The notes under the pieces: generated by a model | Databases searched by the model: none | Told to the model about the DNA's origin: nothing | Seen by the model: the letters and a program-made list of their open reading frames with translations, nothing else | Shown: piece after piece, positions 11,929 to 50,248 of the stretch | Layout: every line of letters begins with the position of its first letter | How positions within the stretch are numbered: the stretch's first letter is position 1 | Assembly: GCA_039589295.1 (NCBI GenBank) | Contig: JBDHHR010000005.1 | Coordinates: 4,919-68,918 of the forward strand | Source of the DNA: Gemmatimonadota bacterium | GTDB lineage: Bacteria > Gemmatimonadota > Gemmatimonadetes > Palauibacterales > Palauibacteraceae | Direction of reading: 5' to 3' | DNA: 64,000 bases | Program-made: the position numbers and the translations under genes

Positions 11929-11937
11929 TCCGATCGT

Positions 11938-34898: not shown

Positions 34899-36487
34899 AC
34901 GATGACAAGCCTGGTCAGGTGAGCGGTCTGGGGTACCTGTACGAAGGCACCCGGGCCATCGGGCTGCAGGGAAGCCTCACCGAACTCCTGCGGGAGGTGG
35001 TGAACCGGGCACAGCGGCTGATCGGGTTCGAGCATTGCGCCCTTATGCTCCTGGACGAGCGGACGGAGCGACTCACGATAGAGTACCTGAAGGGCTACGG
35101 AGACCGGGCGGATGCGATGCGCGGGATCTCCCTGGGACTGGGAGAGGGAATCTCGGGCTGGGCGGCGCTGCACCGGCAGTCGGTCCGGGTCGGTGACGTC
35201 TCCCTTGACCCGCGCTACCGGGAAGGGCTGGCCGAGGCGCGATCGAACCTGGCTGTGCCGCTCATAGTCGGCAACCAGGTGGCCGGTGTCATCAACGTCG
35301 AATCCGAGCGGCCGGACGCCTTCACCGCCGAGCACGAGATGTTCCTGACCGTCCTGGGCGCTCAGGCCGCCTTGGCGATCCTGGCCTTTCGCACCCGCGT
35401 GGCGCTGAAGCAGCGACTCGACCAGCTGGGCGCTCTGTACAGGATCAGCAGCCTTGCCAGCGAGGGTGGCAACCTAGGCGTCACGCTCAATTCCATGCTC
35501 GAGATAGCCGGCGAGGTCATCCCGCAGGGTCAGTCGGCAGTTCTACTGATCGACGAGGAGAGAGGGGTTCTTCGGGTGGAAGCGGGGCAGGGCTACGGGG
35601 TCGCCGCGCGGTATCTGGAGATCCCGCTGGGGCACGGGGTGACCGGACGGTGTGCCCAGACCGGCGAGACTCAGGTGGTAAGCGATATTCGTGAGCTCGC
35701 GGAGGATGAGTACATCCCTGGAGTCCCCGGCGCCAGAAGCGAGGTCGCCGTCCCGCTGATCGCCGACGGCGGCATCATCGGCGTGCTGAACGCGGAGGCG
35801 GTGGAACCCGATGCCTTCGGCCGGGAGGACATCCAGACGCTGACGGTGATCGCACGTCAGGCCGCCCAGGTCATACGAAGCGAGCAGCTTCTGCAGGAGA
35901 CCCGACGGCTGGCCATCATGGACTCGCTCACCGGCCTCCACAACAGGCGGCACTTCACGCAGCAGCTGGACGAAGCTGTGGTCCGGGCCCGGCGATACGG
36001 CGAGCGTCTGGCGTTGTTCTTACTGGACCTGGACCACTTCAAGTCCGTGAACGACCGGTTCGGGCACCAGGTGGGCGACCGCTGCCTCCAGCTCGTCGCC
36101 GACGTTCTGCAAGAGGCGGTGCGGGAGAGTGATCACACGGCGCGAATCGGAGGGGAGGAGTTCGCGATCCTGCTGCTCAAGCCGGGCCGTGAGCTGGCTC
36201 TCACCATCGCCGAGCGACTGCGGGATCGCATTCAGGGCCTGGTCCTCAGCGAAGACCCGACTCTGCCCTTCGGTCTGACCGCGTCCATTGGAATCGCCTT
36301 CTTCCCCGACGAGGGTGAAGACCCCAAGTCGCTCATGCGGCTGGCGGACCTGGCGCTCTACGCGGCCAAACAAATGGGGCGCAACCAGGTGGCGCTTGTT
36401 CCCGGCGGGGGAAAGGAGCGAACGATGGTGGCCGGCGATCAGCGCGACGACGACCCGGGCGCCGGAACGACGCCTGCGGACTCGTGA
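34895..36487 (+). CDS. GAF-GAF-GGDEF diguanylate cyclase
   Basis: Two GAF-like sensor domains are followed by a canonical GGDEF domain (LTGLHNRRHF, LFLLDLDHFKSVNDRFGHQVGD, RIGGEEFAILL). The ATG at 34895 overlaps the Usp stop (ATGA). Confidence 0.88.
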   Translation: MNDDKPGQVSGLGYLYEGTRAIGLQGSLTELLREVVNRAQRLIGFEHCALMLLDERTERLTIEYLKGYGDRADAMRGISLGLGEGISGWAALHRQSVRVGDVSLDPRYREGLAEARSNLAVPLIVGNQVAGVINVESERPDAFTAEHEMFLTVLGAQAALAILAFRTRVALKQRLDQLGALYRISSLASEGGNLGVTLNSMLEIAGEVIPQGQSAVLLIDEERGVLRVEAGQGYGVAARYLEIPLGHGVTGRCAQTGETQVVSDIRELAEDEYIPGVPGARSEVAVPLIADGGIIGVLNAEAVEPDAFGREDIQTLTVIARQAAQVIRSEQLLQETRRLAIMDSLTGLHNRRHFTQQLDEAVVRARRYGERLALFLLDLDHFKSVNDRFGHQVGDRCLQLVADVLQEAVRESDHTARIGGEEFAILLLKPGRELALTIAERLRDRIQGLVLSEDPTLPFGLTASIGIAFFPDEGEDPKSLMRLADLALYAAKQMGRNQVALVPGGGKERTMVAGDQRDDDPGAGTTPADS

Positions 36488-36554
36488 GCGAGAGTGAGGT
36501 CGAGAAGTCAGGCAGCGGCACGCCGGGCTTCCGGCAGCGCGGAAGGAGGAAGTC

Positions 36555-36887
36555 TTGAGCGAGGGAAGACTGGCGGACGGACACTGCGTACCGTGCCGCG
36601 GCGGCGTCCCTCCGCTGCACGGGTCGGAGCTCGCTGAGCTCCACGACGAGCTCGGGGGTGGCTGGGACGTCGTTGACGGGCACCACCTCGTGAAGAGTTT
36701 CGACTTCCGCGACTTCCGCGCCGCGCTCGACTTCACGAACCGGGTGGGCGAACTGGCGGAGCAGGAAGGACACCACCCGGACATTGCACTCACCTGGGGG
36801 AAGGTCCGCATCGAGATCTGGACGCACAAGATAGACGGCCTCACCGAGAGCGATTTCATCCTCGCTGCGAAGATCGACAGGCTGTAG
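36555..36887 (+). CDS. phhB: 4a-hydroxytetrahydrobiopterin (pterin-4a-carbinolamine) dehydratase
   Basis: The 110-aa protein carries the PCD motif EGHHPDIALTWGKVRIEIWTHKIDGLTESDFILAAKID. Confidence 0.88.
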   Translation: MSEGRLADGHCVPCRGGVPPLHGSELAELHDELGGGWDVVDGHHLVKSFDFRDFRAALDFTNRVGELAEQEGHHPDIALTWGKVRIEIWTHKIDGLTESDFILAAKIDRL

Positions 36888-36893
36888 AGGTCG

Positions 36894-38018
36894 TTGACAG
36901 GACTGCAGGGGCCGTTGAATCAGCGCAGTGCTCAGAGCCCGGGGGGCCTGGAGATCCTGTTTCTCGACTCCTGGCTCACCGACCGGCCCCGGGGTAGTGG
37001 ATCGGCGGTGGCCATCGCCGGCCTGGTCACAGGTCTGGCGGCGCTGGGACACCAGGTGAGAACCGTCCGCCCCCGCTGGACGACGCCGTTCCTCGACCTT
37101 ACCCGCGTGCTCTTCAACCTCGGCCTCGGCCGGCGCCTCGACGGGCGTCACGCCGACCTGCTGGTGGGATTCGACTACGATGGGTGCTTTCTCGGCCGCT
37201 CCCCGGACCGTCGATATGTGGTTGCGCTCAAGGGCGTCATGGCCGACGAGCTGAGCGTTGAGGCCGGCTGGAACAAGGCGCGCTTCGCTTTTCTCTCCCG
37301 GCTGGAGCAGCGCAATGCCAGGCGGGCCGATCGGGTGCTGGTAACCAGCGAGCACAGTCGACGGGCCGCCGTTCGCCGGTACGACCTTCAGGCCGAGAAG
37401 GTCCGCATCGTTCCCGAGGGCATAGACGTAGATGCCTGGGAACGGCTGCCGCAACCGCGTCCGAAGGCCGGACCGGTCATCCTCAGCGTCGCTCGTCAGT
37501 ACCGGCGGAAGAACACCCGCGCCCTTCTTCGAGCCGTGGCCCTCGTACGGTCAGAGATTCCCGGGGTGACCCTGAGGGTGGTTGGAGATGGCCCCGAGCT
37601 TCCAACCCTCAGGCGGCTGGCCTCCAGCCTCGGCCTGAAAGGCAACGGCGCCGTGTTCCTGGGGTCTCTGGAGAGCCGCGAGGAGTTGCAGCGGGAGTAC
37701 TCCTCGGCGGACCTGTTCTGCCTTCCGTCACGCCAGGAGGGATTCGGCATCGTGTTACTCGAGGCGATGGCGGCGGGACTGCCGATCGTCGCAGCCGACG
37801 CGGCCGCCGTCCCGGAAGTTGCACCGCACGGGGAGGTGGCACTGCTGGTTTCCCCGGATGATCCGGAGGCGCTGGCGTCAGCCATCCTGAGCGTCCTGCG
37901 CGACGAGGTCCTTCGGGAGAGGCTGTCGCTGGGCGGGCGGCGACGCTGGCGCCGGTACGACTGGCCGTCTGTGGCGGAGCGCTTTCTCGAAGCCGCCGAG
38001 GTGCCCTCACCGCCGTAG
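36894..38018 (+). CDS. Glycosyltransferase family 4 (GT-B fold, retaining)
   Basis: The C-terminal GT4 motif region is present (LFCLPSRQEGFGIVLLEAMAAGLPIVAAD, the E-x7-E motif). It uses a TTG start; the true start is uncertain. Confidence 0.8.
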   Translation: MTGLQGPLNQRSAQSPGGLEILFLDSWLTDRPRGSGSAVAIAGLVTGLAALGHQVRTVRPRWTTPFLDLTRVLFNLGLGRRLDGRHADLLVGFDYDGCFLGRSPDRRYVVALKGVMADELSVEAGWNKARFAFLSRLEQRNARRADRVLVTSEHSRRAAVRRYDLQAEKVRIVPEGIDVDAWERLPQPRPKAGPVILSVARQYRRKNTRALLRAVALVRSEIPGVTLRVVGDGPELPTLRRLASSLGLKGNGAVFLGSLESREELQREYSSADLFCLPSRQEGFGIVLLEAMAAGLPIVAADAAAVPEVAPHGEVALLVSPDDPEALASAILSVLRDEVLRERLSLGGRRRWRRYDWPSVAERFLEAAEVPSPP

Positions 38019-38169
38019 ACGACGGCCGGCCCCGAGAACTGCCGAGAACTGCCGCCTTGCTCGGGTGTGCCGCGGCGGCCGATATTGTGAGCTTCGTTTC
38101 GCGGGGCCCGGCGGGTGAGGTCTGCTCCCGTCGTGGGCCGCTCCGACCCGACAGCAAGGCTGAGACCAA

Positions 38170-39684
38170 ATGAGCGACTCGTCAGGGACTCCTCCACCCT
38201 CACCGGCCTCCATCCAACCGAGCGACAAGAGCTTCTTCGGCCATCCGCGGGGTCTGGCCACCCTCTTCTTCACCGAGATGTGGGAACGGTTCAGCTTCTA
38301 CGGCGGTCGGGGAATCCTCATCCTCTTCATGACCGCGGCCGTCGCGACCGGCGGGCTCGGCATGACGACCGCCACCGCGGCGGCCATATACGGACTGTAC
38401 ACGGCATCTGTGTACCTCTTCGCTCTCCCGGGTGGCTGGGTAGCCGACCGGCTGATGGGTCAGCGGAATTCGGTCGTCGCCGGCGGCGTCCTCATAGCGG
38501 CGGGGAACTTCAGCATCGCCACGCCGGGGATGGCGACCTTTTACCTCGGTCTCATCCTGATCGTGCTCGGCACCGGGTTGCTCAAGCCCAACGTGAGCAC
38601 CATCGTCGGCGAGTTATATCCCGAGGGTGGCGCGCGGCGTGATGCCGGTTTCTCGATCTTCTATATGGGGATCAACGTCGGCGCCTTAGTCGCGCCTCTC
38701 ATCTGCGGCTACCTGGGCGAGAACATTAACTGGCACCTCGGGTTCGCGGCGGCGGGCGTGGGCATGGTACTGGGGCTGATCCAGTACAGGCTCGGCTGGG
38801 GCTTCCTGGGAGAGGCCGGCAAATTCCGGGAGGAGGCCCGGGCTACCCGCGGACAGGCGGTCCGCCAGGCCATGCTGGGGGTCCTGCTGGCAGTGATCAT
38901 CGCCCTCGTCCTGTACCTGCTCGGCAGCCGCGGCGTGCTCAACATCACCCTAGAAGGCGCGGCGCAGGCAACCGGCGTGATCATTCTGGCCATAGCCGTG
39001 CTGTTCTTTGCCTCGGTCCTGGCCTTCGGTCACATGGTGTCCGTGGAGAAGCGGCGGGTCGTGTTGATCTTCCTGCTGTTCCTCGGTGCGGCCATATTCT
39101 GGGCCGGTTTCGAGCAGGCCGCGTCGTCACTGAACCTGTTCGCCGAACGGCTGACGGACCGGACGGTGCTCGGGTGGGAGGCGCCGGCGAGTTGGCTTCA
39201 GGCGATCAACCCCCTGTTCATCATCGCCCTCGCGCCGGTGTTCGGCTGGTTGTGGGTCGCCACGAACAACATCGGGCGGGAGCCGTCATTGCCGGTGAAG
39301 TTCGGGCTGGGTCTGGTTCTTCTGGGCGTGGGCTTCCTGGTTATCGCGTGGGGCGCCACGTACGCGACCGACGGCAACTTGGTGAGCCCGGGTTGGTTGG
39401 TTTCCACCTACTTCCTGCATACCTGCGGCGAGCTGTGCCTCAGCCCCGTAGGCCTGAGCAGCATCACCAAGCTCTCGCCGCCGCGGTTCGTCGGACAGAT
39501 GATGGGCACCTGGTTCATGGGTACCGCCCTGGGCAACCTGGTGGCGGGCCTGGTGGCCGGACAGTTCGAGCGCATGCCGCTGCCGCAGCTCTTCTTCACC
39601 GTCGCCATCACGGTGGGTGTGGCCGGAGTGCTGTTCTTCCTGGCCGCGCGGTGGATCAGGAAGATGATGGGGGGCGTGCACTGA
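38170..39684 (+). CDS. Proton-dependent oligopeptide transporter (POT/PTR2 family, DtpT-like)
   Basis: The PTR2 signature FTEMWERFSFYGGRGILILFM is present, followed by 12-14 TM helices. Length is 504 aa. Confidence 0.88.
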   Translation: MSDSSGTPPPSPASIQPSDKSFFGHPRGLATLFFTEMWERFSFYGGRGILILFMTAAVATGGLGMTTATAAAIYGLYTASVYLFALPGGWVADRLMGQRNSVVAGGVLIAAGNFSIATPGMATFYLGLILIVLGTGLLKPNVSTIVGELYPEGGARRDAGFSIFYMGINVGALVAPLICGYLGENINWHLGFAAAGVGMVLGLIQYRLGWGFLGEAGKFREEARATRGQAVRQAMLGVLLAVIIALVLYLLGSRGVLNITLEGAAQATGVIILAIAVLFFASVLAFGHMVSVEKRRVVLIFLLFLGAAIFWAGFEQAASSLNLFAERLTDRTVLGWEAPASWLQAINPLFIIALAPVFGWLWVATNNIGREPSLPVKFGLGLVLLGVGFLVIAWGATYATDGNLVSPGWLVSTYFLHTCGELCLSPVGLSSITKLSPPRFVGQMMGTWFMGTALGNLVAGLVAGQFERMPLPQLFFTVAITVGVAGVLFFLAARWIRKMMGGVH

Positions 39685-39851: not shown

Positions 39852-41315
39852 GTGAGTACATGCACCGGAATCGGCCCGTTCGACGAGCGCCTGGGCGACC
39901 TTCGCTCAGGCGGAGTGTATCTCCTCGCGGGAATGCCCGGCTCGGGCAAGCTCGCCTTCATTCTGCAGTACCTCGCCGAGGGAGTGGGGCACGGCGAACG
40001 GGTGGCCCTGCTCAGCGGCTACGAGCCGGCGGAGGTCTTCGAGCAGGCCGACCACTGGGGACTGGAACTCGAGAAGGCCTGGAAGAGCGACGCGCTGGTA
40101 CTGGCCGGGTTCCGCGGCGAGTATCCGCGGCGGATCCTGCACGCCCCGGATCCCGGAGAGGCGTTCGCCGAGCTCGATCGACTGCTGGACGGGGAGGTGA
40201 CGCGCCTCGGCGTCGATCCGGGCATGCTGCTGTGGGAAACGCGGGCGGGTACGGCCATGGCGCACCAGTTTCTCCAGTGGGCCGACGGTCTGGGCGCCAC
40301 CACCATGGCCACGCTGGTTGGCGACCTGAAGGAGTCCCCCGGACCCTCTACCGAGTGGGTGCTGCAGCGCGCGACAGGCGTGTTTCACTTGGCTCGACTG
40401 GCGGGCGGGCTGCACGAGCTGGCTATCTACCGGATTCACCCGCCGTTGGAGAGCACCGGGCCCATTACGCTGGAGCTGATGCCGGGCGCCGGCTTCGTAG
40501 CTCCTACGGGCCGGATCGGCCGGCGCCGTGGCGACACGGCGGCGGCAGCCGAGGACAGGCTCCTGCTGATGCGGCTGGCAGCCGGACCACCACCCGACGT
40601 CGAGGGCTGGCTCCGCCGGACGTATACGGTGACGGAGGCAAAGGACCCTCTGGAGATGGTCTCTCGCCTGCAGGGTGAGCCGTTCGGCATGCTATGCATT
40701 TCCATCGATCGCGCCCGAACGGAAGAAGCTCTGCAGATCTGCCAAACCGTCCGTCCCATGACCAGCGCGGCTCTCGTCCTGGTGTCCGGCGAACGATTGC
40801 GCTCGGTCGATCGGGCCCGCGCCATAGAAGCCGGCGCCGACGACGTCCTGACGAACGAAGTGAACATCCGGGAGATGGAGTCGAGAATCCGGCGGGCGGC
40901 GACGTGCGCAGGTGAGCGACCGCGGGCCGTTGATCAAGACGGGGGGAGTATCCGGACGCCGGATCCCGTCGATGAGCTCCTGTCGCGAAAAGCCTTCGCG
41001 GCGATCGTGAACGAACGGCTGGCATCGAAGGAGTTCGGTTTCTTCACGTTTGTCGGGCTGGCCGGCGCTCTTCCGCAGGGGACGAGCGAGGCCCTGCGCG
41101 AGAGCATCCGGGTGGAGGCGGGCGATGTGGTCGGGGCGCTGGACGATGGATTCGGAATCGTGCTCCAGGAGGCCCGAGCCGGGCACGCTGAAGGGTTCCT
41201 CGGACGGGTGCGTGCGGCTCTGGCCGAACAACTGGGCGAGGGCGTGGAGCTCGAGACCGAGATCCTGGCCAGCCCAGACGACGCAGAGCGGATTCGGGCG
41301 CTCCTCCCCGGGTAG
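39852..41315 (+). CDS. KaiC/RecA-like ATPase fused to a receiver-like domain and a degenerate GGDEF-like domain
   Basis: The N-terminus (GIGPFDERLGDLRSGGVYLLAGMPGSGKLAFILQYL, Walker A) has the KaiC/RadA-type P-loop. A mid region resembles a CheY-like receiver (MLCISIDRARTEEALQICQTVRPMTSAALVLVSGE...AIEAGADDVLTNEVNIREMESRIRRA). The C-terminus aligns to GGDEF topology but with GGDEF replaced (RKAFAAIVNERL...FGFFTFVGLAG...DVVGALDDGFGIVLQE). It is the first gene of the polysaccharide locus. Confidence 0.7.
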   Translation: MSTCTGIGPFDERLGDLRSGGVYLLAGMPGSGKLAFILQYLAEGVGHGERVALLSGYEPAEVFEQADHWGLELEKAWKSDALVLAGFRGEYPRRILHAPDPGEAFAELDRLLDGEVTRLGVDPGMLLWETRAGTAMAHQFLQWADGLGATTMATLVGDLKESPGPSTEWVLQRATGVFHLARLAGGLHELAIYRIHPPLESTGPITLELMPGAGFVAPTGRIGRRRGDTAAAAEDRLLLMRLAAGPPPDVEGWLRRTYTVTEAKDPLEMVSRLQGEPFGMLCISIDRARTEEALQICQTVRPMTSAALVLVSGERLRSVDRARAIEAGADDVLTNEVNIREMESRIRRAATCAGERPRAVDQDGGSIRTPDPVDELLSRKAFAAIVNERLASKEFGFFTFVGLAGALPQGTSEALRESIRVEAGDVVGALDDGFGIVLQEARAGHAEGFLGRVRAALAEQLGEGVELETEILASPDDAERIRALLPG

Positions 41316-41354
41316 GCGGGCCGGGGACCGCGCAGCGTAGAGGGCACGCCCCGC

Positions 41355-43574
41355 ATGGAGAGATCGACGGTCAGGAGGCGAAGGAGATTCCCCTACTGGG
41401 TCGTGTACACCGGCATCACGACCCTGCTCCTGGCTCTGACGGGGTTTCTGGTTCTCATCGTCCTGCCGGAGCGCTTCGTCCTCCAGGCCGGCCTTCGCGA
41501 ATCCGGTATCTCCTTCCCGGCGTCCACCCTCGGGTTCGGGCCTCCGGCGCGCTCGCCGGTGGTGGAGCCTCCTCCTCCGCCGCCGCGTCCCGTCGCGCCA
41601 GCGATCGGCCCGGCCGAAGCGTTATGGAGTGAACTCACGCCCCTTCTGCGTGTCGGCCGCTATCACGAGGCACTGGCCCGCATGGAGGATTACCTGGCCG
41701 TCCACCCGGGAGACCTCGGAGTCCGGCGGGAACGAGCCAGGACCCTGGCCGGGACCGGCGACCGGCAGCGGGCGAGCGAGGCCCTCGGGCGGCTGGCCGA
41801 CGAACCTGGCGAGCTCCAGGACGGCCTGGCTCTCGCCCGCTTCATTCGTGATGCGGGCGAGTTGAGCGAGGCGGTCGAGATCTACCGGACGCTTGTCGAC
41901 AGGTACCCGGACGATGCGGATCTCAGGTACGAGTTGGCGCAGGCGCTCATGTGGTCGGAGCGCTACCGGGAGGCGGAGGCCGAGTTCCGCGCGCTAATCC
42001 GGCTGCGGCCGACGGAGGATGTGTACCGCCTCGAGCTGGCGCGGGTCCTGTACTGGACCGACAGGCTCGAGGAAGCGCGATCCGTTCTGGCTGCTATCTC
42101 CCCCGAGGCCGAGAGCCGGATGGAAGCCGACGCGCTCGACGCCGAGCTGGTGACTCTGCTTGCTCCTGTCGAGCCGGAACCCGAGCCGGTGGACCAATCA
42201 CCGCTGGCTCGAGCGAGGCGTGCGGCGGCAGCCGGCGAGCTGCAGTTGGCCGCCGAGCTCTACCGGGAAGCCCTGCAGGCGGATTCAGGAGACGCCGTAC
42301 TGTGGCTGGAATGGATAGACTTTCAGCAGCGGCGGCTCGGGGACCTGGAGGGCGCCAGGGACGAGCTCATCGCGTACGATGGGCGCTTCGGTCTTTCCCC
42401 CGAGCTGGAGTACCGGCTGGCGCTGCTGCACACGTGGACCGAGCGGAACGAGGAGGCCCGGCTCATCCTCCTCAGGCTCCTGGAGACCAGTCCGAACCGG
42501 GCAGAGGCCTGGAGCCTGCTCGGCGATGTTTATCGCTGGAGCGGGGAAAGACCCGCCGCGGCCGGTGCCTACCGCCGGGCCCTCGTCCTGGATCCGGCAG
42601 ACCCGCGGGCGCTGGCGGGTGCCGCGGACCTCGGATTGCAGCGGGAGCGCATCGTCGCGGCTCGCGAGCGGCGGGGCTACGGGCCACGGGCGAGCGCCTA
42701 CGGCGACTCGGATGAGTATCGGAGATTCGAGCTGGAGGCGGACGCGAGGTTAGCCTTCCCACGCAGCAGTTCGGCTCTCCGGGTGGCAACCGGCTACCGG
42801 TGGCTGGAGGGACTGGATGTTTCCGGCGTCGAGACCACCGACGATGGCCCTTACACAGAGGCCGAGCTCATCCACTGGTGGCGTGAGGCGACCATCCGCA
42901 CGGCCCTTCGAGCCGGAGTACAGTACCTGCGAGGATTCGGCCTCGAGCCGAGTTTCGGCCTGGACGTCGAAGTGCCCGATGCGGGGGGATTCGGCCTCCT
43001 CGGAACGCTGGAGCACGCACCCGCGTACCCGCTCACGGCCACCCTGGAGAGCGTGCAGCAGCCGGTACGAGCCGACCGACTCTTCGTGTCCCTGTTCCGC
43101 TCGCTGGGCGAGCGATGGAGCGTGGGCGGTACCGCGGATGTGGCCGTTCTGACCCATACGGAGGCGAACAACATACGGTGGGGCGGGCGGCTCACGCTGG
43201 GATGGAATGTCTCGCGCCGGGTCGTCGGAGAGCTGAGCTCAAGCTACCTGTCATACACCGACGCGGCCCCTCGCAGCGCGCTGCGAGGGATCTACTGGGA
43301 CCCGGCTTCCTTCTGGGCGACGACGTTGTCGCTGGGCCTGCGGGAACGGCCCGAACTGGGCTGGGGGTACGGCGTCATGCTGACGGGAGGCGCTGCCCTG
43401 ATGGACGAACGCAGCGCGACCGGTACGGTGTGGCTGCCACAGTTTGCGGTCGAGGGGAAGCTGTCGCAAACTGGCCGGAGGCAGGACTTCGAGCTGAGAG
43501 CCTTCTACCGCCGGGGACGGGAGAGGGATTACAGCTCGCTCGGGCTCGACCTGAAGCTGCTCGTGAGGCCGTAG
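41355..43574 (+). CDS. TPR-repeat protein with beta-rich C-terminal domain, PgaA/BcsC-like polysaccharide export candidate
   Basis: An N-terminal TM/signal anchor is followed by a Pro-rich linker, ~8 TPR-like repeats (many W..LG/A..Y...G motifs), and a ~280-aa C-terminal region with alternating hydrophobic patterns ending LGLDLKLLVRP, which is beta-barrel-like. It sits immediately upstream of the PgaC-like synthase. Confidence 0.65.
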   Translation: MERSTVRRRRRFPYWVVYTGITTLLLALTGFLVLIVLPERFVLQAGLRESGISFPASTLGFGPPARSPVVEPPPPPPRPVAPAIGPAEALWSELTPLLRVGRYHEALARMEDYLAVHPGDLGVRRERARTLAGTGDRQRASEALGRLADEPGELQDGLALARFIRDAGELSEAVEIYRTLVDRYPDDADLRYELAQALMWSERYREAEAEFRALIRLRPTEDVYRLELARVLYWTDRLEEARSVLAAISPEAESRMEADALDAELVTLLAPVEPEPEPVDQSPLARARRAAAAGELQLAAELYREALQADSGDAVLWLEWIDFQQRRLGDLEGARDELIAYDGRFGLSPELEYRLALLHTWTERNEEARLILLRLLETSPNRAEAWSLLGDVYRWSGERPAAAGAYRRALVLDPADPRALAGAADLGLQRERIVAARERRGYGPRASAYGDSDEYRRFELEADARLAFPRSSSALRVATGYRWLEGLDVSGVETTDDGPYTEAELIHWWREATIRTALRAGVQYLRGFGLEPSFGLDVEVPDAGGFGLLGTLEHAPAYPLTATLESVQQPVRADRLFVSLFRSLGERWSVGGTADVAVLTHTEANNIRWGGRLTLGWNVSRRVVGELSSSYLSYTDAAPRSALRGIYWDPASFWATTLSLGLRERPELGWGYGVMLTGGAALMDERSATGTVWLPQFAVEGKLSQTGRRQDFELRAFYRRGRERDYSSLGLDLKLLVRP

Positions 43575-43577
43575 AAG

Positions 43578-44918
43578 ATGGCGAGCCGACTGAGGCACCT
43601 GGGCCCCCTGCTGGTGATCGCAACCGCGATCGCGCTCACATCTCTGTTCTTCATTTGGCTGGTGCGTTCGCCGGACCGGCTACGGGTGTTCGTCATCCAG
43701 CTTCTCCTGATTTCCCTGGTGATCTTCCTCGGGATCCTGCTGATCCGTTACTTCACCCTCCTGTGGTTCGGATACCTGCAGCACCAGGAGAGGGGGATCC
43801 GGGGAGATGTGTCTGATGTCGAGCTGCCGCCGGTCTCGGTGGTAGTACCGGCTTACAACGAGGCCACGGTCATCGGCCGCGCCATCGACAGCCTTCTGCG
43901 GCTGGACTACCCGCTGTACGAGGTGATCGTGGTGGACGACGGTTCGGGCGACGGGACGCTCGCGATAGCGGGCGCCAAGGAGGGCCTCCACGAGGGAGTG
44001 GAGGTGCGGGTCTTCTCCAAGCCCAACGGGGGAAAGGCGACTGCCCTGAACCTGGGCATCCACAACGCCCGTTACCCGTTCATCCTGTGCATGGATGCCG
44101 ATTCGATAGTAGAACCGCAGCTTCTGCGAACGTCCGTTCCACACTTCCGCGATCCGTCGGTCGGCGCCGTGGCGGGAAACGTCAAGGTGGAGAACCGCCA
44201 CGGGCTGCTGACCCGACTGCAGGCGCTGGAGTACATCGAGGGACTCAACATGCCGCGCCGCGCCCAGGGCTTCATAGCCGCGGTGAACATAGTGCCGGGA
44301 CCGGTGGGCGTTTTCCGTCGCGAGGCGCTGACCGACGTCGGCGACTACGATACCGACACCTTTGCGGAGGACGCGGACCTGACGCTGAAGCTGATCACCG
44401 AAGGGTGGAAGATAGTCTACGAGGATCAGGCGATCGCCTGGACGCAGGCGCCCGAACGTTTCATCGACCTGGTTCAGCAACGCTACCGCTGGACCCGAGG
44501 TATCCTGCAGGCTGTCCGGAAGCGCAAAGGGCTCCTGTGGCGCCCTGTCCCCGACTTCCCGCTGTGGCTGTCGGGCACGGAGATGGTGTTCGAGGCAATC
44601 ATCTGGCCGATAATGAACGTCTACGCTCACCTGTTCTTCGCCTTAGTCGCGCTTCTGTTCGGCCGCGGGGAGCTCCTGTTGTACTGGTGGATCCTCCTCA
44701 CCCTGCTGGACCTGGTGGCGGCGCTGGTGACCGTCTCGATGGAGGAGGAGTCTCTGTCGCTCGTTCCGCTGGCCATCGTTTACCGCTTCTTTTTCATTCT
44801 GTTTCTGGACGTGACCAAGGCGTTCGCCTCGGTCGAGGAGTTCTTCCGCTTCGGCATGGAGTGGGACAAGCTGCGGCGCGTCCCCGTGGGGAGCGGCGTT
44901 GAGGAGAGTGCCATATGA
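43578..44918 (+). CDS. pgaC: GT2 processive beta-glycan synthase, PgaC/IcaA-like (poly-beta-1,6-GlcNAc synthase family)
   Basis: Motifs VIVVDDGSGDGT, CMDADS and QQRYRWTRG (QxxRW) are present, plus two N-terminal and three C-terminal TM helices. Length is 446 aa, as in PgaC. Confidence 0.85.
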   Translation: MASRLRHLGPLLVIATAIALTSLFFIWLVRSPDRLRVFVIQLLLISLVIFLGILLIRYFTLLWFGYLQHQERGIRGDVSDVELPPVSVVVPAYNEATVIGRAIDSLLRLDYPLYEVIVVDDGSGDGTLAIAGAKEGLHEGVEVRVFSKPNGGKATALNLGIHNARYPFILCMDADSIVEPQLLRTSVPHFRDPSVGAVAGNVKVENRHGLLTRLQALEYIEGLNMPRRAQGFIAAVNIVPGPVGVFRREALTDVGDYDTDTFAEDADLTLKLITEGWKIVYEDQAIAWTQAPERFIDLVQQRYRWTRGILQAVRKRKGLLWRPVPDFPLWLSGTEMVFEAIIWPIMNVYAHLFFALVALLFGRGELLLYWWILLTLLDLVAALVTVSMEEESLSLVPLAIVYRFFFILFLDVTKAFASVEEFFRFGMEWDKLRRVPVGSGVEESAI

Positions 44919-45106
44919 GCATCGTCGACCTGTTGATCATGATCATCGTGGTGACGATCCTGGTTACCATCGTGCTGGGTGTCATCACCTATCTGGCGTA
45001 CAAGCTGCGGAGGTCGCGGCGGCCGGAATCAGAGGTGGAGGAGGCGTTCGGAACGTGGTACTTCGTGCGGCATCTGCCCGAGCGGGGGCGGGCTGAGGAG
45101 GTCTGA
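44915..45106 (+). CDS. Small single-TM membrane protein, candidate PgaD/IcaD-like synthase partner
   Basis: The 63-aa protein is MSIVDLLIMIIVVTILVTIVLGVITYLAYKLRRSRR... It is ATGA-coupled to the pgaC-like stop and precedes the deacetylase. Assigned by position only. Confidence 0.45.
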   Translation: MSIVDLLIMIIVVTILVTIVLGVITYLAYKLRRSRRPESEVEEAFGTWYFVRHLPERGRAEEV

Positions 45107-45111
45107 CCGTA

Positions 45112-47052
45112 ATGCCGCCGAGATCGGAGCCGGTACCGCGCGCCCGCGCTGCAGTTCACTGGCTGAGCGGCCTGGCGCTGCTGGGTATCCTGGCAGGCGG
45201 CGTGATAGCCGCCGCGGTGGCCCTGTGGGAGAACGTCGACGTCCGCAGTCTAGCGCGGCAGGCGGCCGGCGTGACCGAGTCGCCGCCGCTTCCGGGGGAG
45301 CAGACCGGTCCGATGGCAGTGAGTCCCGCAGGCACGGTTTCCGCGCTCCTCGTCTCCCGGGCAAGCGCCGGCTTCTTCCCGGATAGTTCATTCTACCCGG
45401 CGACAATCCGGAGGTGGGAGACCATGCTGGAGGAACTTGGCAGCGTGCGACGCATAGCGTCAGCCGCGGAAATGGCGGAGCTGCCCCCAGGCGCTCTTCT
45501 GGTCGCCCCCGACGCGATCTGCCTGGCTCAGATGGAGGTCGACGCTCTGAGCAGCCATGTCGAAGCGGGGGGCAGCCTGGTGATCGACCGGGCGACGGGC
45601 GCCCGCGACGAGAAGTGTGAGTGGCGGGGCTGGAACGTAGTTCAATCGCTTACCGGGTCCATCGATGTGCTGGAGCGGCCGGCGGAGCAGTCCCTGTTCT
45701 TCACACTCCCCGCGGGGCTGCCGCTATCGGCCGGACTGGCGCCCGGTACCCGGGTGGAGCTGCACCCGGACGCCCGCCTGGGCTTGCTGACGACAGGGCC
45801 GCGCGCCTACTGGTCGGATTGGGCCCTGAATCCAGTCTCGCCCGAGGGGAAGCCCTCGCCTGACGCGGCTGCGGTGCTGCGAAAGGCCGACGGTGAAGGC
45901 CGAGGCCGGGTGGCGTGGTTCGGCTTCCGCACGGGACAGGGCGCAGGCGATCGCAACGAAGCTCTCCTCAGTCAGGTTCTGCGCAACGGCACGCGATGGG
46001 CCGCCGGCGTGCTCATGGCCGAGGTGTCCCCGTGGCCGGCGGGAAGACAGGCCGCGCTGCTCATAGGCCAGGACGTCGAGTCCGGATTCGCCAACGCGGC
46101 TTACCTCGCCGCTTTGCTGCGAGAGAAGGCCGCTCGGGCCTCGTTCTTTGTCGTATCAGAGCTAGCTCAGGAGAATCCCGACGTTGCGGACTCTCTGCTC
46201 GGAGCCGGGGAGATCGGCAGCCAGACCGCGGATCACTATCCCACCGCGGGGCTCCCTCTGGGCGAGCAGACGCTGAGGCTGCGCCGGAGCTGGAGCCAGC
46301 TGCGCCGCTGGTCCGGCCGGCCGCCGGTAGGACTGCGCCCGCCGGAGGAACGGTTCGATGAGAACACGCTTCGGGCATGGCGCGAGGTGGGTGGCGAGTA
46401 CATCGCCGCGGTCAACGACGCTCGCTCCGCGGCTCCGGAGGTTTACACGACGCCGGCCGGGCCCGTGGTTCTCCTCCCGCGTCTTGTCGATGACGATTAC
46501 AACGTCCTGGTGCAGGAAGGAGCCCGCCGCACCCGCCGACTCCGGGACGCGTACCTGCAGGGGATGCGTAAGCTAGGTCCCCTCGGAGGAATAGCTTACC
46601 TCGCCCTGCACACGCAGATCGGCGGAACACCGGATCGGGTGGGCGTCGTCGGGGAGGTAATCGACAGCGCGCGCAGCCAGCCGGGGAACTGGTGGCTGGC
46701 CACGGGCGAGGAAATCGCGCGATGGTGGCTGGCCCGTGACGGGGTCGTGCTGAACCTGCCGGAGTCGGATCCCGACTCGTTGCAGGTTCGGGTGCTGAGC
46801 GGAGACGGGTTGGCCGGGGGCTGGATCGAAGTGTACGGCGACGCCCTGGCGTCGCTCGTGCCGTTCGACAGCGAGCGGCAGCTGCCCTATGCCCGAACCG
46901 AATGGGGACTGCGATTCGCCATGCCCGAGCTTCCCGGCGGCGAAACCAGGACGTTCATCCTGAGACCAGAGCCGGAGGTATCCGGGGAAACCCACGAACC
47001 GGACCGAGACGCTTCGGCAGAGGATACGGCACTTGTCCCCTCCCCCTCGTGA
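45112..47052 (+). CDS. Polysaccharide deacetylase-family protein (PgaB-like, membrane-anchored)
   Basis: An N-terminal TM anchor and a central NodB-like region (ALLIGQDVESGFANAAYLAALLREKAARASFFVVSE...) are present, plus C-terminal extra domains. Length is 646 aa and it sits immediately after the synthase genes. Confidence 0.7.
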   Translation: MPPRSEPVPRARAAVHWLSGLALLGILAGGVIAAAVALWENVDVRSLARQAAGVTESPPLPGEQTGPMAVSPAGTVSALLVSRASAGFFPDSSFYPATIRRWETMLEELGSVRRIASAAEMAELPPGALLVAPDAICLAQMEVDALSSHVEAGGSLVIDRATGARDEKCEWRGWNVVQSLTGSIDVLERPAEQSLFFTLPAGLPLSAGLAPGTRVELHPDARLGLLTTGPRAYWSDWALNPVSPEGKPSPDAAAVLRKADGEGRGRVAWFGFRTGQGAGDRNEALLSQVLRNGTRWAAGVLMAEVSPWPAGRQAALLIGQDVESGFANAAYLAALLREKAARASFFVVSELAQENPDVADSLLGAGEIGSQTADHYPTAGLPLGEQTLRLRRSWSQLRRWSGRPPVGLRPPEERFDENTLRAWREVGGEYIAAVNDARSAAPEVYTTPAGPVVLLPRLVDDDYNVLVQEGARRTRRLRDAYLQGMRKLGPLGGIAYLALHTQIGGTPDRVGVVGEVIDSARSQPGNWWLATGEEIARWWLARDGVVLNLPESDPDSLQVRVLSGDGLAGGWIEVYGDALASLVPFDSERQLPYARTEWGLRFAMPELPGGETRTFILRPEPEVSGETHEPDRDASAEDTALVPSPS

Positions 47053-47129: not shown

Positions 47130-49043
47130 TTGGGTGAGAAGGAAGTACGCCTGGAAGTGGACGGGGCGGGACTCCGCCTCTTCACGCAGGCTCTCCTTCG
47201 CGACGTGCGCGCTCTGGAGCAGTTGCTGGCCACAGGCGCCATCGAGTCCGGGGTGCGGCGCGTAGGTCTCGAGCAGGAACTCTTCCTGGTAGACGACATG
47301 TGGCGGGCGGCCCCTGTGGCGGTCGAGGCGCTCGAGCTCGTCGACGATCCTCGCGTCACCAGTGAGATCGGCCGGTTCAACCTCGAGTGCAACCTCGATC
47401 CGCTCATCTTCGGCGGTGACTGCCTCCGGCGCATGGAGCAGGATGTGGACGCTCTGCTGGAGACTGTGCGCGAGGCGGTGGCTCAGCTCGGGGCGAACAT
47501 CGTCCTGATCGGTATCCTCCCGACGTTGCGGAAATCAGACCTGAGTATAGACAACATCTTCCCGGCGAACAGGTATTACGCGCTGAACGACGCGCTGACC
47601 CGTTTGCGGGGAGGTCCGTACGATCTCCGCATCAAGGGGACCGACGATCTGCGCGTCACGCACGATTCGGTTATGCTTGAGGCAGCTAACGCCAGCTTCC
47701 AGGCTCATTTCCAGGTCGGCCCCGAAGAGTTCGCCAATCTTTACAACATCGCGATGACGGCCAGCGCGCCGGTCCTCGCCGCAGCCGTCAACTCACCGCT
47801 CATGCTGGGACGCCGCCTGTGGCACGAGACCCGGATCGCTGTGTTCCAGCAATCCATCGACACGCGAGCCGCCATGCCGGAGGTGCGTGACCTGTCGCCG
47901 CGGGTGAGCTTCGGGCGGGAGTGGGTCGACGAATCGGTTCTGGAGGTGTTCAAGGCCGACATCTCGCGTTTCAAGGTGTTGCTGGGACGGGAGATCGACG
48001 AGGATCCCTTCGAGGCCATGGAGGAGGGACGGGTCCCGACCCTGCAGGCTCTTCAGCTCTTCAACAGCACTGTCTACCGCTGGAATCGAGCGTGTTACGG
48101 TGTTGCGGACGGAGTAGCGCACCTGCGAATCGAGAACCGGGTGCTGCCATCGGGACCTACGGTACTGGACGAGATCTCGAACGCGGCCTTCTGGTTCGGT
48201 GTGGTGGCCGGGCTGGCGAACGAAGTGGACGACGTGCGGGAGACGATAGCCTTCCACACGGTGCGCACCAACTTCGTCGCGGCCGCGCGCCACGGCCTGG
48301 ACGCCCAGATGACGTGGCTGGACGGCGAGACTCTCACTGCGCAGGAATTGATTTGCCGGCGGCTCTTGCCGTTCGCCCGGAGAGGTCTGGAAGCGAGCGC
48401 CATAGACGGCCAGGATATCGACCGCTATCTGGGGACCATCGAGGCGCGGGTCGGCTCGCGTCGCACCGGTGCTCACTGGCAGCTGGGCTCGCTCGCTTCG
48501 ATGGGGGAGGATGGGACGCTGGAGGAGCGGATGGCGGCGCTGGTAGCCGCCACCGTCAGCCGCCAGGCCGAGGGTCAGCCCGTGCACCATTGGAGCGAGG
48601 CCGGGTTGGACGAGTCCGGGGGCTGGAAGCCCAGCTTTCAGCGCGTCGAGCAGTACATGTGTACCGACCTGGTCACGGTGAACGAGGAGGAGCCCATCGA
48701 TCTGGTCGCCAACTTGATGGACTGGCATAGGATTCACCATGTGCCTGTCGAAGACCACGAGCACCGGCTCGTGGGGCTGATGTCCCAGAGGCCTCTCATG
48801 CGCTTCCTGGCCAGCGACGAGGCGCGCCGGGCGGAGGGCCCGATCCCGGTGAGCGATCTCATGCAGCGTGAGCTCATAACCGCCTCACCAGAGACGTCGA
48901 CCATCGAAGCCATCGAGAAGATGAGACAGCACGGCATTAGCTGCCTGCCGGTGGTGCGGGAGGGAAGGCTGGTCGGAATCGTGACCGAGCATGACTTCAT
49001 GCGCATCGCGGGCCAACTGCTGGAGGAGAAGCTTCGGGAGTGA
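47130..49043 (+). CDS. GCS2-family carboxylate-amine ligase (YbdK/EgtA-like glutamate-cysteine ligase family 2) fused to a C-terminal CBS-domain pair
   Basis: The N-terminal ~370 aa carry GCS2 hallmarks (VGLEQELFLVD, GTDDLRVTHDSVMLEAANASFQAHFQV, STVYRWNR). The C-terminal ~130 aa have two CBS motifs (VTVNEEEPIDLVANLMDWHRIHHVPVEDHEHRLVGLMS and ITASPETSTIEAIEKMRQHGISCLPVVREGRLVGIVTEHD). TTG start. Confidence 0.75.
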   Translation: MGEKEVRLEVDGAGLRLFTQALLRDVRALEQLLATGAIESGVRRVGLEQELFLVDDMWRAAPVAVEALELVDDPRVTSEIGRFNLECNLDPLIFGGDCLRRMEQDVDALLETVREAVAQLGANIVLIGILPTLRKSDLSIDNIFPANRYYALNDALTRLRGGPYDLRIKGTDDLRVTHDSVMLEAANASFQAHFQVGPEEFANLYNIAMTASAPVLAAAVNSPLMLGRRLWHETRIAVFQQSIDTRAAMPEVRDLSPRVSFGREWVDESVLEVFKADISRFKVLLGREIDEDPFEAMEEGRVPTLQALQLFNSTVYRWNRACYGVADGVAHLRIENRVLPSGPTVLDEISNAAFWFGVVAGLANEVDDVRETIAFHTVRTNFVAAARHGLDAQMTWLDGETLTAQELICRRLLPFARRGLEASAIDGQDIDRYLGTIEARVGSRRTGAHWQLGSLASMGEDGTLEERMAALVAATVSRQAEGQPVHHWSEAGLDESGGWKPSFQRVEQYMCTDLVTVNEEEPIDLVANLMDWHRIHHVPVEDHEHRLVGLMSQRPLMRFLASDEARRAEGPIPVSDLMQRELITASPETSTIEAIEKMRQHGISCLPVVREGRLVGIVTEHDFMRIAGQLLEEKLRE

Positions 49044-50248
49044 GCCACAGCGTCCGTGCCGTCGCCGATGCGCAGGCGCCCCTGAGAGGCGCCCGGGAGG
49101 GGCCCAAACGCCTGATCGGGCTCTTCGGCGGGTACGCGCCGGGCCCGACGCTGGTGTGTGTGGGCGGACTTCACGGCAACGAGCCGGCCGGCGTTCTGGC
49201 CCTGCGCCGCCTGCTGGCCAGGCTCGAAGACTCCCACCCGCCATTCCGGGGGGAGTTGCTGGCCCTGGCGGGGAATCTCGAAGCGCTGAGGCTCGGCCGG
49301 CGCTTCGTCGACCGCGACCTCAACCGCGCGTGGACCCGGCGACAGATAGCGCGCGCGAGATCCGCCTCGAGACCGGGGACCGAGGACCGCGAGCAGCTGG
49401 AGTTGATGGCGGTCATGGCAGATACTCTCGATCGGAATGGCGACGAGATCTACGTAGTGGATCTGCACACCACCTCTGCCGACAGCGCCCCGTTTGTCAC
49501 CCTGGGAGACACCCTGCACAACAGAGCCTTCGCCCGGCGCATAGGCCTCCCGCTCGTCCTGGGGATCGAGGAGCAGATAGAAGGAGCGCTCCTGGAGTTC
49601 GTCAACGAGAGAGGTCCGGTCACCCTGGGAATCGAGGCCGGACAGCACGAGGATCCGGCCTCCATCGATAACCATGAGCGGGCGCTGTGGATGGCCCTGA
49701 TGGCGTCCGGCAACGTGCGGGAGCGGGATGTCCCCTGGGTGCGAGCCATGCGGAGGGAGCTCAGGCAAGCGTACGGAGCGTTGCCAGGCGTCTTCGAGGT
49801 GCGTTATCGCAGGGGAGTCAACGAAACGGACGGATTCCGCATGCGCCCGGGTTACCGGAATCTTCAACCCGTGCTCGAGGGCGAGATCCTGGCCACCGAC
49901 AGGGATGGGCCGGTGAGGGCCCCGGAGGCGGGACGCGTCTTCTTGCCGTTGTACCAGGAACTGGGAGACGACGGCTTCTTCATCGTGCGAGAGATAAGCG
50001 CGGCTTGGCTGCGCGTCTCGTCGGTCCTGCGACGCCTGCGCATGGACGCCATCGCCCACTGGCTCCCCGGTATTCATCGCGCCCGCCGGCGTCCGGAAAC
50101 CCTCATCGTCGACCGCCGCGTGGCCCGCTGGCTGGCTATCGAGTTGTTGCACCTCCTGGGGTTCCGCAAGAAGAGAGTTGCCCGTGGCGCGTTCGTCTTC
50201 AGCCGTCGCCCGCACGATCGACTGCCGCGACGCGGCCATCGCCGGTAG
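49040..50248 (+). CDS. Succinylglutamate desuccinylase/aspartoacylase (AstE/AspA) family Zn-dependent deacylase
   Basis: Motifs VCVGGLHGNEPAG, VDLHT and GIEAGQHEDPASIDNHE are the Zn-ligand and catalytic Glu pattern of this M14-like family. ATGA-coupled to the GCS2 gene. Confidence 0.78.
   Translation: MSHSVRAVADAQAPLRGAREGPKRLIGLFGGYAPGPTLVCVGGLHGNEPAGVLALRRLLARLEDSHPPFRGELLALAGNLEALRLGRRFVDRDLNRAWTRRQIARARSASRPGTEDREQLELMAVMADTLDRNGDEIYVVDLHTTSADSAPFVTLGDTLHNRAFARRIGLPLVLGIEEQIEGALLEFVNERGPVTLGIEAGQHEDPASIDNHERALWMALMASGNVRERDVPWVRAMRRELRQAYGALPGVFEVRYRRGVNETDGFRMRPGYRNLQPVLEGEILATDRDGPVRAPEAGRVFLPLYQELGDDGFFIVREISAAWLRVSSVLRRLRMDAIAHWLPGIHRARRRPETLIVDRRVARWLAIELLHLLGFRKKRVARGAFVFSRRPHDRLPRRGHRR

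Follow-up and report, generated by a model that had tools for sequence, protein, structure and literature searches.

A cassette of five genes, here called g1 to g5 (Table 1), was analysed in a stretch of 64,000 nucleotides from a Gemmatimonadota bacterium (GenBank assembly GCA_039589295.1, contig JBDHHR010000005.1, positions 4,919 to 68,918 of the forward strand; hereafter the window). We consider that it probably constitutes a self-contained, synthase-dependent exopolysaccharide system, in which a polymer of N-acetyl-hexosamine (HexNAc) is made, modified and exported, with g1 as a regulator resembling BcsE of the Escherichia coli cellulose system. An original prediction, drawn from the DNA letters alone, had described the locus as a rearranged pga/ica system. 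The outline it gave, a synthase-dependent exopolysaccharide locus with a processive family-2 glycosyltransferase (GT2), a small transmembrane (TM) partner, a protein with the fold of carbohydrate esterase family 4 (CE4) and an exporter combining tetratricopeptide repeats (TPR) with a beta-barrel, is supported by the results below; the assignment to pga is not.

The five genes are co-directional and tightly spaced, as that prediction had it, with intergenic gaps from g1 to g5 of 39, 3, –4 and 5 nt; an ATGA overlap of g3 and g4 is read in the sequence at 44915-44918. A search inside the five-gene block found no promoter-like site, and terminator-like sites were below shuffle expectation. Loci were compared from two chromosomes of metagenome-assembled genomes (MAGs; L005, CP070666.1, 5.5 Mb, and L006, 4.05 Mb) and from 79 metagenome loci collected with a g5 alignment. 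The order g1-g2-g3-g4-g5 was present in every locus with enough upstream flank (~25 metagenome loci, tblastn survey, plus the two MAG chromosomes), and it recurred in a distant lineage (L088 and L089). Identity to the window proteins across loci (tblastn) was highest for g3 (61–85%), followed by g4 (50–75%), g5 (41–56%), g1 (33–50%) and g2 (32–50%). All named-source homologues of g1, g2 and g5 were labelled Gemmatimonadota. Because this order is kept while the flanking genes vary from clade to clade, g1 to g5 are taken to be a functional unit. We conclude that the five-gene operon is real and conserved across Gemmatimonadota.

Predicted synthase, export and modification proteins

The g3 protein matched Glyco_tranf_2_3 (PF13641) at 132 bits, and its DDG, DAD, FRR, AEDAD and QRYRW motifs, the set of a processive GT2, all aligned with those of E. 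coli PgaC, to which it is 33% identical over 248 residues (E = 2e-42). Hydrophobic segments were read from the sequence at both ends of the protein, which agrees with the 2 + 3 TM helix layout of PgaC/IcaA. Its designation as PgaC/IcaA-like holds for these motifs and for the ranking of families: PgaC/IcaA (TIGR03937) was the best-scoring curated family, ahead of NodC (100 bits), MftF and CelA (all at ~85–100 bits). It does not extend to family membership, the PgaC/IcaA score being 202.4 bits against a cutoff of 422.3, with model positions 10–320 of 407 covered and the C-terminal membrane part unmatched. Chitin_synth_2 was weakly matched (30 bits). The closest annotated genes in a plasmid collection were Kocuria and Streptomyces genes labelled 'bifunctional polysaccharide deacetylase/GT2', 42–50% identical over the catalytic core. 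Because of its family and the recurrent partnership with a CE4 protein, g3 likely uses a substrate of the N-acetyl-hexosamine class.

The exporter, g2, matched many TPR families in Pfam, and a 16-strand barrel had been predicted for it. The AlphaFold2 (AF2) model, built with 30 homologues (mean predicted local distance difference test score, pLDDT, 87.2), placed ~20 TPR helices at residues 86–437 and exactly 16 beta-strands at 441–737, which is the arrangement of PgaA and BcsC, a periplasmic TPR superhelix with a C-terminal 16-strand barrel. The best Foldseek matches in the Protein Data Bank (PDB) were cryo-EM structures of E. coli BcsC (9b8a, E = 1.9e-14, 556 columns; 9b8h_A, E = 4.3e-13, 607 columns). 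Curated family scores were low and came from the TPR region only (PgaA, TIGR03939, 37.6 bits against a cutoff of 366.65; BcsC, NF008520, 25.9 against 858). The N-terminus has an Arg-rich tail followed by a 23-residue hydrophobic helix (residues 14–36) and a segment modelled as disordered (37–79), within which residues 37–56 show the highest conservation in g2 (0.76, compared with 0.57 for the TPR and 0.53 for the barrel). When the g2 consensus was read for a signal-peptidase-like site after this helix, none was obvious. Speculatively, g2 might remain attached to the complex in the inner membrane, and so be held in both membranes. The corresponding protein of the distant lineage (L088, 4638-5879; 413 aa, of which ~100 aa are TPR) has a more signal-peptide-like N-terminus and the same '...RP' ending as g2; its C-terminal part was judged beta-rich by inspection. 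An Lnt gene and an OMP_b-brl gene are also present in the window.

The small protein g4 had been described as a 63-aa, single-TM product coupled through ATGA to the synthase, and the sequence bears this out: it has one hydrophobic helix. At the same position in other loci, 46 distinct homologous sequences were found (59–83 aa, 50–75% identical), with a nearly invariant TM helix, a shared juxtamembrane stretch, 'AYKLR[LR][AS]R[RE]P', and a tail, [RW][YF]F[VI]x[HY]xP, predicted to be cytosolic (in g4 itself 'WYFVRHLP', at about residues 45-55). Since it is conserved across these 46 sequences, g4 appears to be a real gene under selection. Its proposed identity as PgaD found no backing, since none of 23 g4 members matched PgaD (PF13994), which E. 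coli PgaD itself matches at 58.5 bits. PgaD/IcaD proteins measure ~100–140 aa and carry two N-terminal TM helices; E. coli PgaD is 137 aa long and has two TM helices. E. coli BcsF, on the other hand, is also 63 aa with one TM helix, so that g4 agrees with it in size and topology and fits BcsF at least as well as PgaD. The two share an N-terminal pattern, 'I-x-D-[IL][IL]-x-II-VV...LG...YLA..LRR.R', and the conserved 'RYFV..P' tail of g4 resembles that of BcsF, whose tail after P43 ('PRYVKP...') adds a beta-strand to the sheet of the degenerate NTPase domain of BcsE in the cryo-EM structure (PMC11470070). By analogy, we hypothesise that g4 could act as a BcsF-like tether, a PgaD-like co-subunit, or both.

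The g5 protein had been called a PgaB-like membrane-anchored deacetylase. The anchor and the CE4 domain stand: there is an N-terminal TM helix, and residues 329–430 match PF01522 at 42.2 bits (gathering score 23.1). The likeness to PgaB goes no further, as g5 lacks the GHL13/GH153 domain, which E. coli PgaB matches at 482 bits. More than 220 homologues were found. Searched against the PDB, the family profile gave deacetylase 3rxz as best match (E = 1.7e-11, residues 333–541), with PuuE/HpPgdA-type structures also recovered. Because the TM anchor is conserved like the catalytic domain (0.69 and 0.67), a specific helix-helix contact with the synthase complex is suggested. Ahead of the CE4 domain lies a region weakly matching DUF4350/GH42M, in which Cys137, Cys169 and Arg165 are invariant, and His149 (112/120) and Asp166 (117/120) nearly so; these statistics, like those that follow, come from 120 homologues.

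The canonical CE4 motif set comprises D-D, H-x-x-x-H (which with Asp forms an Asp-His-His metal triad), R-x-P-Y, D-x-x-D-W/Y and L-x-H. The original prediction had made the NodB Asp/His residues decisive for g5. A conserved set is present, but it is non-canonical, with a likeness to the PuuE/HpPgdA/3rxz branch. Motif 1 is D321-V-E323 (E in 119/120); motif 2, Q/H371-T-x-D374-H375 (Q in 82, H in 37); motif 3, R/H409-P-P-E-E; motif 4, D461-D462-Y-N; and motif 5, H/R500-T/S-Q502 (H in 83, R in 37). Invariant or near-invariant throughout are E323, D374, H375, P411-E412-E413, D462-Y463-N464 and Q502; of these, P411-E412-E413, D462-Y463-N464 and Q502 are strictly invariant. Positions 409 and 500 vary together: 81 sequences have R409/H500 and 28 have H409/R500; these 28 are all of those with H409, and the remainder are R/R (9) or K/H (2). 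This strict swap suggests a maintained two-residue arrangement in the active site. Given the non-canonical metal and catalytic residues and the nine R/R sequences, deacetylation by g5 is probable rather than assured.

Protein g1 and its relatives

The description of g1 as a KaiC-like/REC/degenerate-GGDEF protein fares unevenly at the sequence level: residues 5–85 match KaiC (PF06745) at 34.7 bits, above the Pfam gathering score, and the receiver (REC) region gives weak response-regulator matches, while the third domain is recognised in the structural model. The AF2 model of g1 (pLDDT 85.5) has a well-preserved KaiC-like fold in its N-terminal domain and an alpha-beta-alpha-beta-beta-alpha-beta-alpha succession in its GGDEF-like domain. 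In a Foldseek search of the PDB, the top five matches were all BcsE chains (9fnn_U, 9fnn_E, 9fo7_E, 9fp0_E and 9fp2_D), with E-values from 3e-17 to 7e-15, 512–536 aligned columns and template-modelling scores (TM-scores) up to 0.53; the GGDEF-like region was aligned inside this full-length match, and KaiC ranked next. BcsE itself consists of a RecA/KaiC-like NTPase domain with a ruined Walker A motif, a phosphorylation-incompetent REC domain and a degenerate GGDEF domain, and it binds dimeric c-di-GMP (cyclic di-GMP) through R415TGD on the GGDEF and R306ATD on the REC domain (PMC7439463, PMC11470070).

Homologues of g1 included 57 proteins at 44–54% identity, and its motif states were read from an alignment of 33. 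After the GxxGxGK of Walker A comes an invariant Leu where Ser/Thr is usual (sub-clade variants 'TAKL' and 'SGRL'), and the catalytic Glu pair of KaiC is not conserved. The REC domain has D, E, G or A at the phospho-acceptor position and lacks the beta5 Lys; in the GGDEF hairpin the sequence is 'DDGFG'. As modelled, g1 is thus a pseudo-enzyme of degenerate NTPase, REC and GGDEF domains in the tripartite order of BcsE. R420 and G424-D425 of the GGDEF-like domain are invariant, with R-x-x-x-x-D spacing, as are R224 and R225 in the linker between the first two domains (pLDDT < 50). The earlier proposal that g1 is a signalling ATPase replacing a c-di-GMP interface is contradicted by the degenerate motifs, the whole-chain fold match to BcsE and the RxxD-like motifs. 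Because g1 keeps these motifs, c-di-GMP control has more likely been retained than replaced, and g1 most likely binds c-di-GMP through them.

A profile search of 1.84 billion representative sequences returned 403 clusters below a threshold of 1e-10; for ~90 the value was under 1e-30, many of these matching over their full length. In an alignment of 49 full-length relatives, the decay of the motifs was graded. Intermediate relatives retain GK[ST]; the most distant ones (P0364, P0317, P0310 and P0324) have both GK[ST] and a canonical receiver (DD...D...KP), together with a canonical RxxD five residues before the degenerate GGDEF ('RPED-AVALL-GEHEL'). Relative to these, the window's clade has two extra residues between R420 and D425, and the linker motif R225-x-x-D228 is confined to this degenerate clade. 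P0364 lies in a cassette of the same type (L088; KaiC-REC protein 533 aa, TPR protein 413 aa, GT2 436 aa, peptide 59 aa and CE4 protein 582 aa), whose CE4 protein has H-x-x-x-H intact. From this gradient we infer that g1 kept the function of sensing c-di-GMP, by its I-site-like motifs, while the ATP and phosphoryl inputs were lost in the window's lineage. The g1 family thus offers a natural series for the decay of an ATPase/response regulator into a pure c-di-GMP sensor, with intact-motif members in the same operon type. Two distant relatives were seen in other surroundings, one (L091, 514-2963) preceded by a divergent stand-alone polysaccharide deacetylase of 277 aa, the other (L093, 1187-3670) followed by a PAS-GGDEF diguanylate cyclase. 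The g1 homologue of L005 (4694-6170) is called as two ORFs (open reading frames) of 287 and 225 aa, through a frameshift or assembly error or as a genuinely split regulator.

Gene content, folds, motif states and synteny were computed; the substrate and linkage of the polymer, deacetylase activity, c-di-GMP binding and the contacts of g1 with g4 and g3 are proposed in the following scheme. The inner-membrane processive GT2, g3, would polymerise a UDP-activated N-acetyl-hexosamine, most likely UDP-N-acetylglucosamine (UDP-GlcNAc), and pass the chain through its own membrane channel, with g4, single-pass and translated in tandem with it, as a small subunit of the synthase complex. The TM helix of g5 would keep this protein at the complex, where it would act on the chain as it emerges into the periplasm, its CE4-fold domain most likely removing part of the N-acetyl groups, and the TPR superhelix of g2 would take the chain and hand it over to the 16-strand barrel in the outer membrane. 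The cytosolic g1, with its three decayed catalytic or phospho-acceptor motifs and the architecture of BcsE, would serve as regulator: once bound to c-di-GMP it would join the synthase, where the conserved tail of g4 on the cytosolic side may bring it in as BcsF does with BcsE, and its arrival would stabilise the active state of the synthase.

Several results weigh against this scheme. Judged by sequence scores, no cassette component reaches the threshold of its pga or bcs counterpart family, and neither BcsQ/BcsR-like partners nor a PilZ domain are encoded in the cassette. An alignment of the g1 family with E. coli BcsE by hhalign gave nothing, and CBP_BcsE (PF10995), which E. coli BcsE matches at 757 bits, was matched neither by g1 nor by ten distant relatives. 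Since no sequence relationship is detectable, g1 is named BcsE-like by architecture and not as a CBP_BcsE member; the link is one of fold and architecture, and could reflect convergence. No GGDEF domain was detected in the g1 sequence, either by Pfam scan or by hhalign against a true GGDEF domain encoded in the window, and its R-x-x-x-x-D, as aligned, departs from the canonical R-x-x-D. For g4, CBP_BcsF (PF11120) was reached below threshold in 8 of 23 members (best E = 0.013; cutoff 23 bits), with other TM families scoring similarly; BLASTP against BcsF gave nothing, hhalign a probability of 11%, and a direct comparison 5.7 bits, a score equalled by 78 of 3000 segment-shuffled BcsF decoys (p ~ 0.026). 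These statistics are too weak, and homology of g4 with BcsF was not accepted. Among the 120 g5 homologues, Gln replaces the first metal-site His in 82 and Arg the motif-5 His in 37; Glu takes the place of the usual metal Asp, and the nine R/R sequences have no His at either swapped position.

Table 1. Coordinates of the cassette genes, of segments within them and of a neighbouring diguanylate cyclase (positions in the window).
Feature	Position	Strand	Extent	Description
g1	39852-41315	+	487 aa	Cytosolic three-domain protein modelled as a pseudo-enzyme of BcsE-like architecture (degenerate NTPase, REC and GGDEF domains); proposed c-di-GMP sensor and synthase regulator
g1, first domain	39852-40496	+	residues 1-215	KaiC/RecA-like domain with degenerate catalytic motifs (PF06745, 34.7 bits)
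g1, RRRGD	40521-40535	+	residues 224-228	Clade-conserved R-R-x-x-D in flexible linker; candidate second c-di-GMP I-site
g1, second domain	40557-40907	+	residues 236-352	Degenerate receiver; weak PF00072 and response-regulator matches
g1, third domain	40980-41312	+	residues 377-487	GGDEF-like domain without GG[DE]EF; family-wide conserved R420...G424-D425
g2	41355-43574	+	739 aa	TPR plus 16-strand beta-barrel protein of BcsC/PgaA-type architecture, predicted outer-membrane exporter
g2, N-terminal segment	41394-41606	+	residues 14-84	Hydrophobic helix, highly conserved post-TM segment and Pro-rich linker
g3	43578-44918	+	446 aa	Processive family-2 glycosyltransferase, predicted synthase and translocon; PgaC/IcaA/MatB-like, outside the PgaC equivalog
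g4	44915-45106	+	63 aa	Single-pass membrane protein; proposed small synthase-complex subunit, possible BcsF-like tether for g1
g5	45112-47052	+	646 aa	N-terminally anchored periplasmic protein with DUF4350/GH42M-like, CE4 (NodB-fold) and C-terminal domains; proposed polymer de-N-acetylase
g5, swap residues	46336-46338 and 46609-46611	+	codons 409 and 500	Positions of the R/H exchange
Diguanylate cyclase	34757-36487	+		GAF-GAF-GGDEF (PF00990, 167 bits); upstream, outside the conserved cassette

In the public (JGI) annotation, g1 begins 27 codons further in (omitting 39852-39932) and g2 16 codons further in (omitting 41355-41402). The longer starts used here are preferred because the N-termini of homologues align to the longer forms.

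Alternative products and identities

A HexNAc polymer can be linked in more than one way, and a tentative alternative, which we hold possible though less probable than the reading above, is that the same machinery makes a beta-1,4 polymer of GlcNAc and glucosamine (GlcN), chitin- or chitosan-like. In ten loci (L006, at 11929-13044, and L036, L039, L042, L044, L045, L047, L049, L050 and L051), a gene of glycoside hydrolase family 18 (GH18) lies directly 3' of the g5 homologue; measured in six of these, the start of its ORF falls within a range from 50 nt ahead of the g5 stop to 13 nt past it. The ten form a single clade in the GT2 tree, sister to that of the window, and the catalytic D-x-E is kept in 9 of 9 aligned sequences (HLD[FIL]E / IDFE motif). 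Where GH18 enzymes have been characterised, they cleave beta-1,4 linkages beside GlcNAc, and the known hydrolases of the beta-1,6 polymer poly-N-acetylglucosamine (PNAG) belong to GH20 and GH153. Where present, the GH18 protein would then be a dedicated periplasmic hydrolase comparable to BcsZ, the GH153 domain of PgaB, PelA or AlgL. The L006 GH18 protein has a lipoprotein-like N-terminus, and another GH18 gene (L090, 260-1252, reverse strand) adjoins a distant g1 relative. The weak Chitin_synth_2 and NodC matches of g3 point the same way. On the other side, no GH18 gene was found within the window itself, PgaC/IcaA outscores NodC two-fold for g3, and the GH18 protein could target peptidoglycan or exogenous chitin instead. 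The nearest annotated relatives of g3 are moreover the bifunctional deacetylase/GT2 genes, a type (Streptomyces MatB) reported to make PNAG. Because of GH18 in the sister-clade operon, beta-1,6 PNAG is only one of several possible products; between it and a beta-1,4 chitin- or chitosan-like chain, the two linkages of the HexNAc polymer appear roughly equally likely. If the GH18 link holds, it raises the possibility of a secreted, chitosan-like bacterial polymer, which would be of interest for biotechnology.

Next comes the reading of the original prediction, a rearranged pga/ica system making beta-1,6 PNAG, in which g2 is a counterpart of PgaA, g4 a miniature PgaD, g5 a counterpart of PgaB and g1 an active KaiC-type ATPase or phospho-relay protein that replaces c-di-GMP control. 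The presence of a CE4 domain and a TPR/barrel protein agrees with it, as do the family ranking of g3 and its identity to PgaC, the position of g4 right after the synthase with an ATGA overlap, as for pgaD and icaD, and the KaiC-like fold of g1. We nonetheless find it unlikely. The four pga family tests fail (g3, 202 of 422 bits; g2, 38 of 367; g4, no match; g5, without GHL13/GH153), g4 is less than half the length of PgaD with one TM helix instead of two, and the best solved match of g2 is BcsC. The g1 family, for its part, has a Walker A without Ser/Thr, neither the Glu pair nor the phospho-Asp conserved, and RxxD-like motifs retained, and the GH18 of the sister clade is ill-suited to a beta-1,6 polymer.

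A bolder combination, which we would give a small chance, is that the cassette represents a new family of synthase-dependent secretion systems by which diderm bacteria export a chitin- or chitosan-like beta-1,4 GlcNAc/GlcN polymer, with a c-di-GMP sensor-tether switch of the BcsE/BcsF type, g2 as a continuous trans-envelope conduit in both membranes and non-canonical CE4 chemistry. If so, the sensor-tether pair would have evolved through visible intermediates from an active KaiC-REC-GGDEF protein, which would explain the origin of enterobacterial BcsE.

Very improbable is a GT2 making no exopolysaccharide but a cell-bound glycan, a glycolipid or a short oligosaccharide in the manner of NodC/NodB, with g2 a general outer-membrane TPR protein and g1 an unrelated neighbouring regulator: all family assignments do lie below equivalog cutoffs, and NodC and NodB likewise pair a GT2 with a CE4 protein, but the five genes, g1 and the barrel protein among them, are co-linear in ~25 loci and a distant lineage, a protein with TPR and a 16-strand barrel whose best match is BcsC bears the hallmark of synthase-dependent export, and g5 is membrane-anchored and predicted to be periplasmic, whereas NodB is cytosolic.

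The genes around the cassette were considered as further parts of the system. Upstream, a block of four forward-strand genes (34757-39684) encodes a diguanylate cyclase (Table 1), a pterin-4a-carbinolamine dehydratase, a family-4 glycosyltransferase (GT4) and a POT-family peptide transporter. Synteny of the cyclase, GT4 and POT genes is limited to the 4–5 closest loci. Downstream, also on the forward strand, a gene joining a GCS2-type carboxylate-amine ligase to two CBS domains (47130-49043) is overlapped by a succinylglutamate-desuccinylase/aspartoacylase-like (AstE-like) gene (49040-50248). Of the 33 loci with enough downstream flank, 14 carry the GCS2-CBS gene 3' of the cassette and 13 carry the AstE-like gene; every one of them belongs to the window's own clade. 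With synteny confined to the window's own sub-clade, both sets were ruled out as core parts. The upstream diguanylate cyclase could still be a dedicated local source of c-di-GMP for g1. A defence system as the identity of the locus was likewise ruled out, as PADLOC gave no meaningful matches.

Comparison with known systems

Like E. coli PgaABCD and staphylococcal IcaADBC, which make and export PNAG, the cassette has a processive GT2 whose gene is followed at once by that of a small membrane partner, a probable CE4 de-N-acetylase and, as in the diderm examples, a TPR protein with a 16-strand barrel porin; control by c-di-GMP is expected in both. The genes stand in another order, the PgaC score of g3 is half the cutoff value, g4 crosses the membrane with a single helix and does not match PgaD, and g5, without GH153, adds a TM anchor and a DUF4350-like domain and has non-canonical CE4 motifs. 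The pga and ica systems lack a separate three-domain cytosolic regulator, which the cassette has in g1. A systematic operon survey mentions no more than rearranged pga operons of environmental bacteria, without detectable pgaB and pgaD (PMC7112194).

The type II cellulose system of E. coli (BcsRQABEFG with BcsC) is matched in accessory features. As modelled, g1 has the architecture of BcsE with RxxD-type motifs; g4 is as long as BcsF, with one TM helix and, on the cytosolic side, a conserved tail; g2 finds its best solved match in BcsC; and g5, as an anchored periplasmic polymer modifier, would take the role of BcsG. The synthase, in contrast, is PgaC-like and has no PilZ domain, BcsB is absent and BcsQ and BcsR are not encoded, and g1 and g4 fall below the CBP_BcsE and CBP_BcsF thresholds. 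The N-terminal domain of g1 is far closer to true KaiC-like ATPases than that of BcsE; CE4-type modification stands in place of phosphoethanolamine transfer, and the hosts are Gemmatimonadota rather than Proteobacteria. If the architecture is a guide, the BcsE-type triple pseudo-enzyme may not be an oddity of enterobacterial cellulose secretion but a module attachable to a different class of synthase in a distant phylum.

Systems of the Streptomyces MatAB type provide the annotated relatives of highest identity to the g3 core and, like the cassette, pair GT2 and CE4 functions. In these monoderm organisms one fused protein carries both the deacetylase and the GT2, and neither a TPR/barrel exporter nor proteins like g1 and g4 are present, whereas in the cassette the CE4 protein is separate and anchored. 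The Pel system (PelA-G) resembles the cassette in its TPR and barrel exporter (PelB), CE4 deacetylase (PelA), degenerate-GGDEF receptor of c-di-GMP (PelD) and, as predicted for the cassette, cationic, HexNAc-rich polymer. It differs in using a GT4 enzyme (PelF) and not a membrane GT2, and in its membrane-bound receptor, PelD, with a GAF domain before the degenerate GGDEF; equivalents of PelC, PelE and PelG are absent from the cassette.

In a literature search, neither this cassette nor any BcsE-like protein beyond cellulose systems was found described, and no paper turned up on biofilm or matrix systems of Gemmatimonadota. Members of this phylum are abundant in soils and sediments, and the cassette is a strong candidate for the main secreted polysaccharide system of the phylum. 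We conclude that it works like the synthase-dependent systems (pga, bcs, pel and alg) and is a member of none of them: the curated pga and bcs family tests fail, while the architecture common to such systems is found. It mixes pga-like chemistry (GT2 and CE4), accessory logic like that of the type II Bcs system and clade-specific extras such as GH18.

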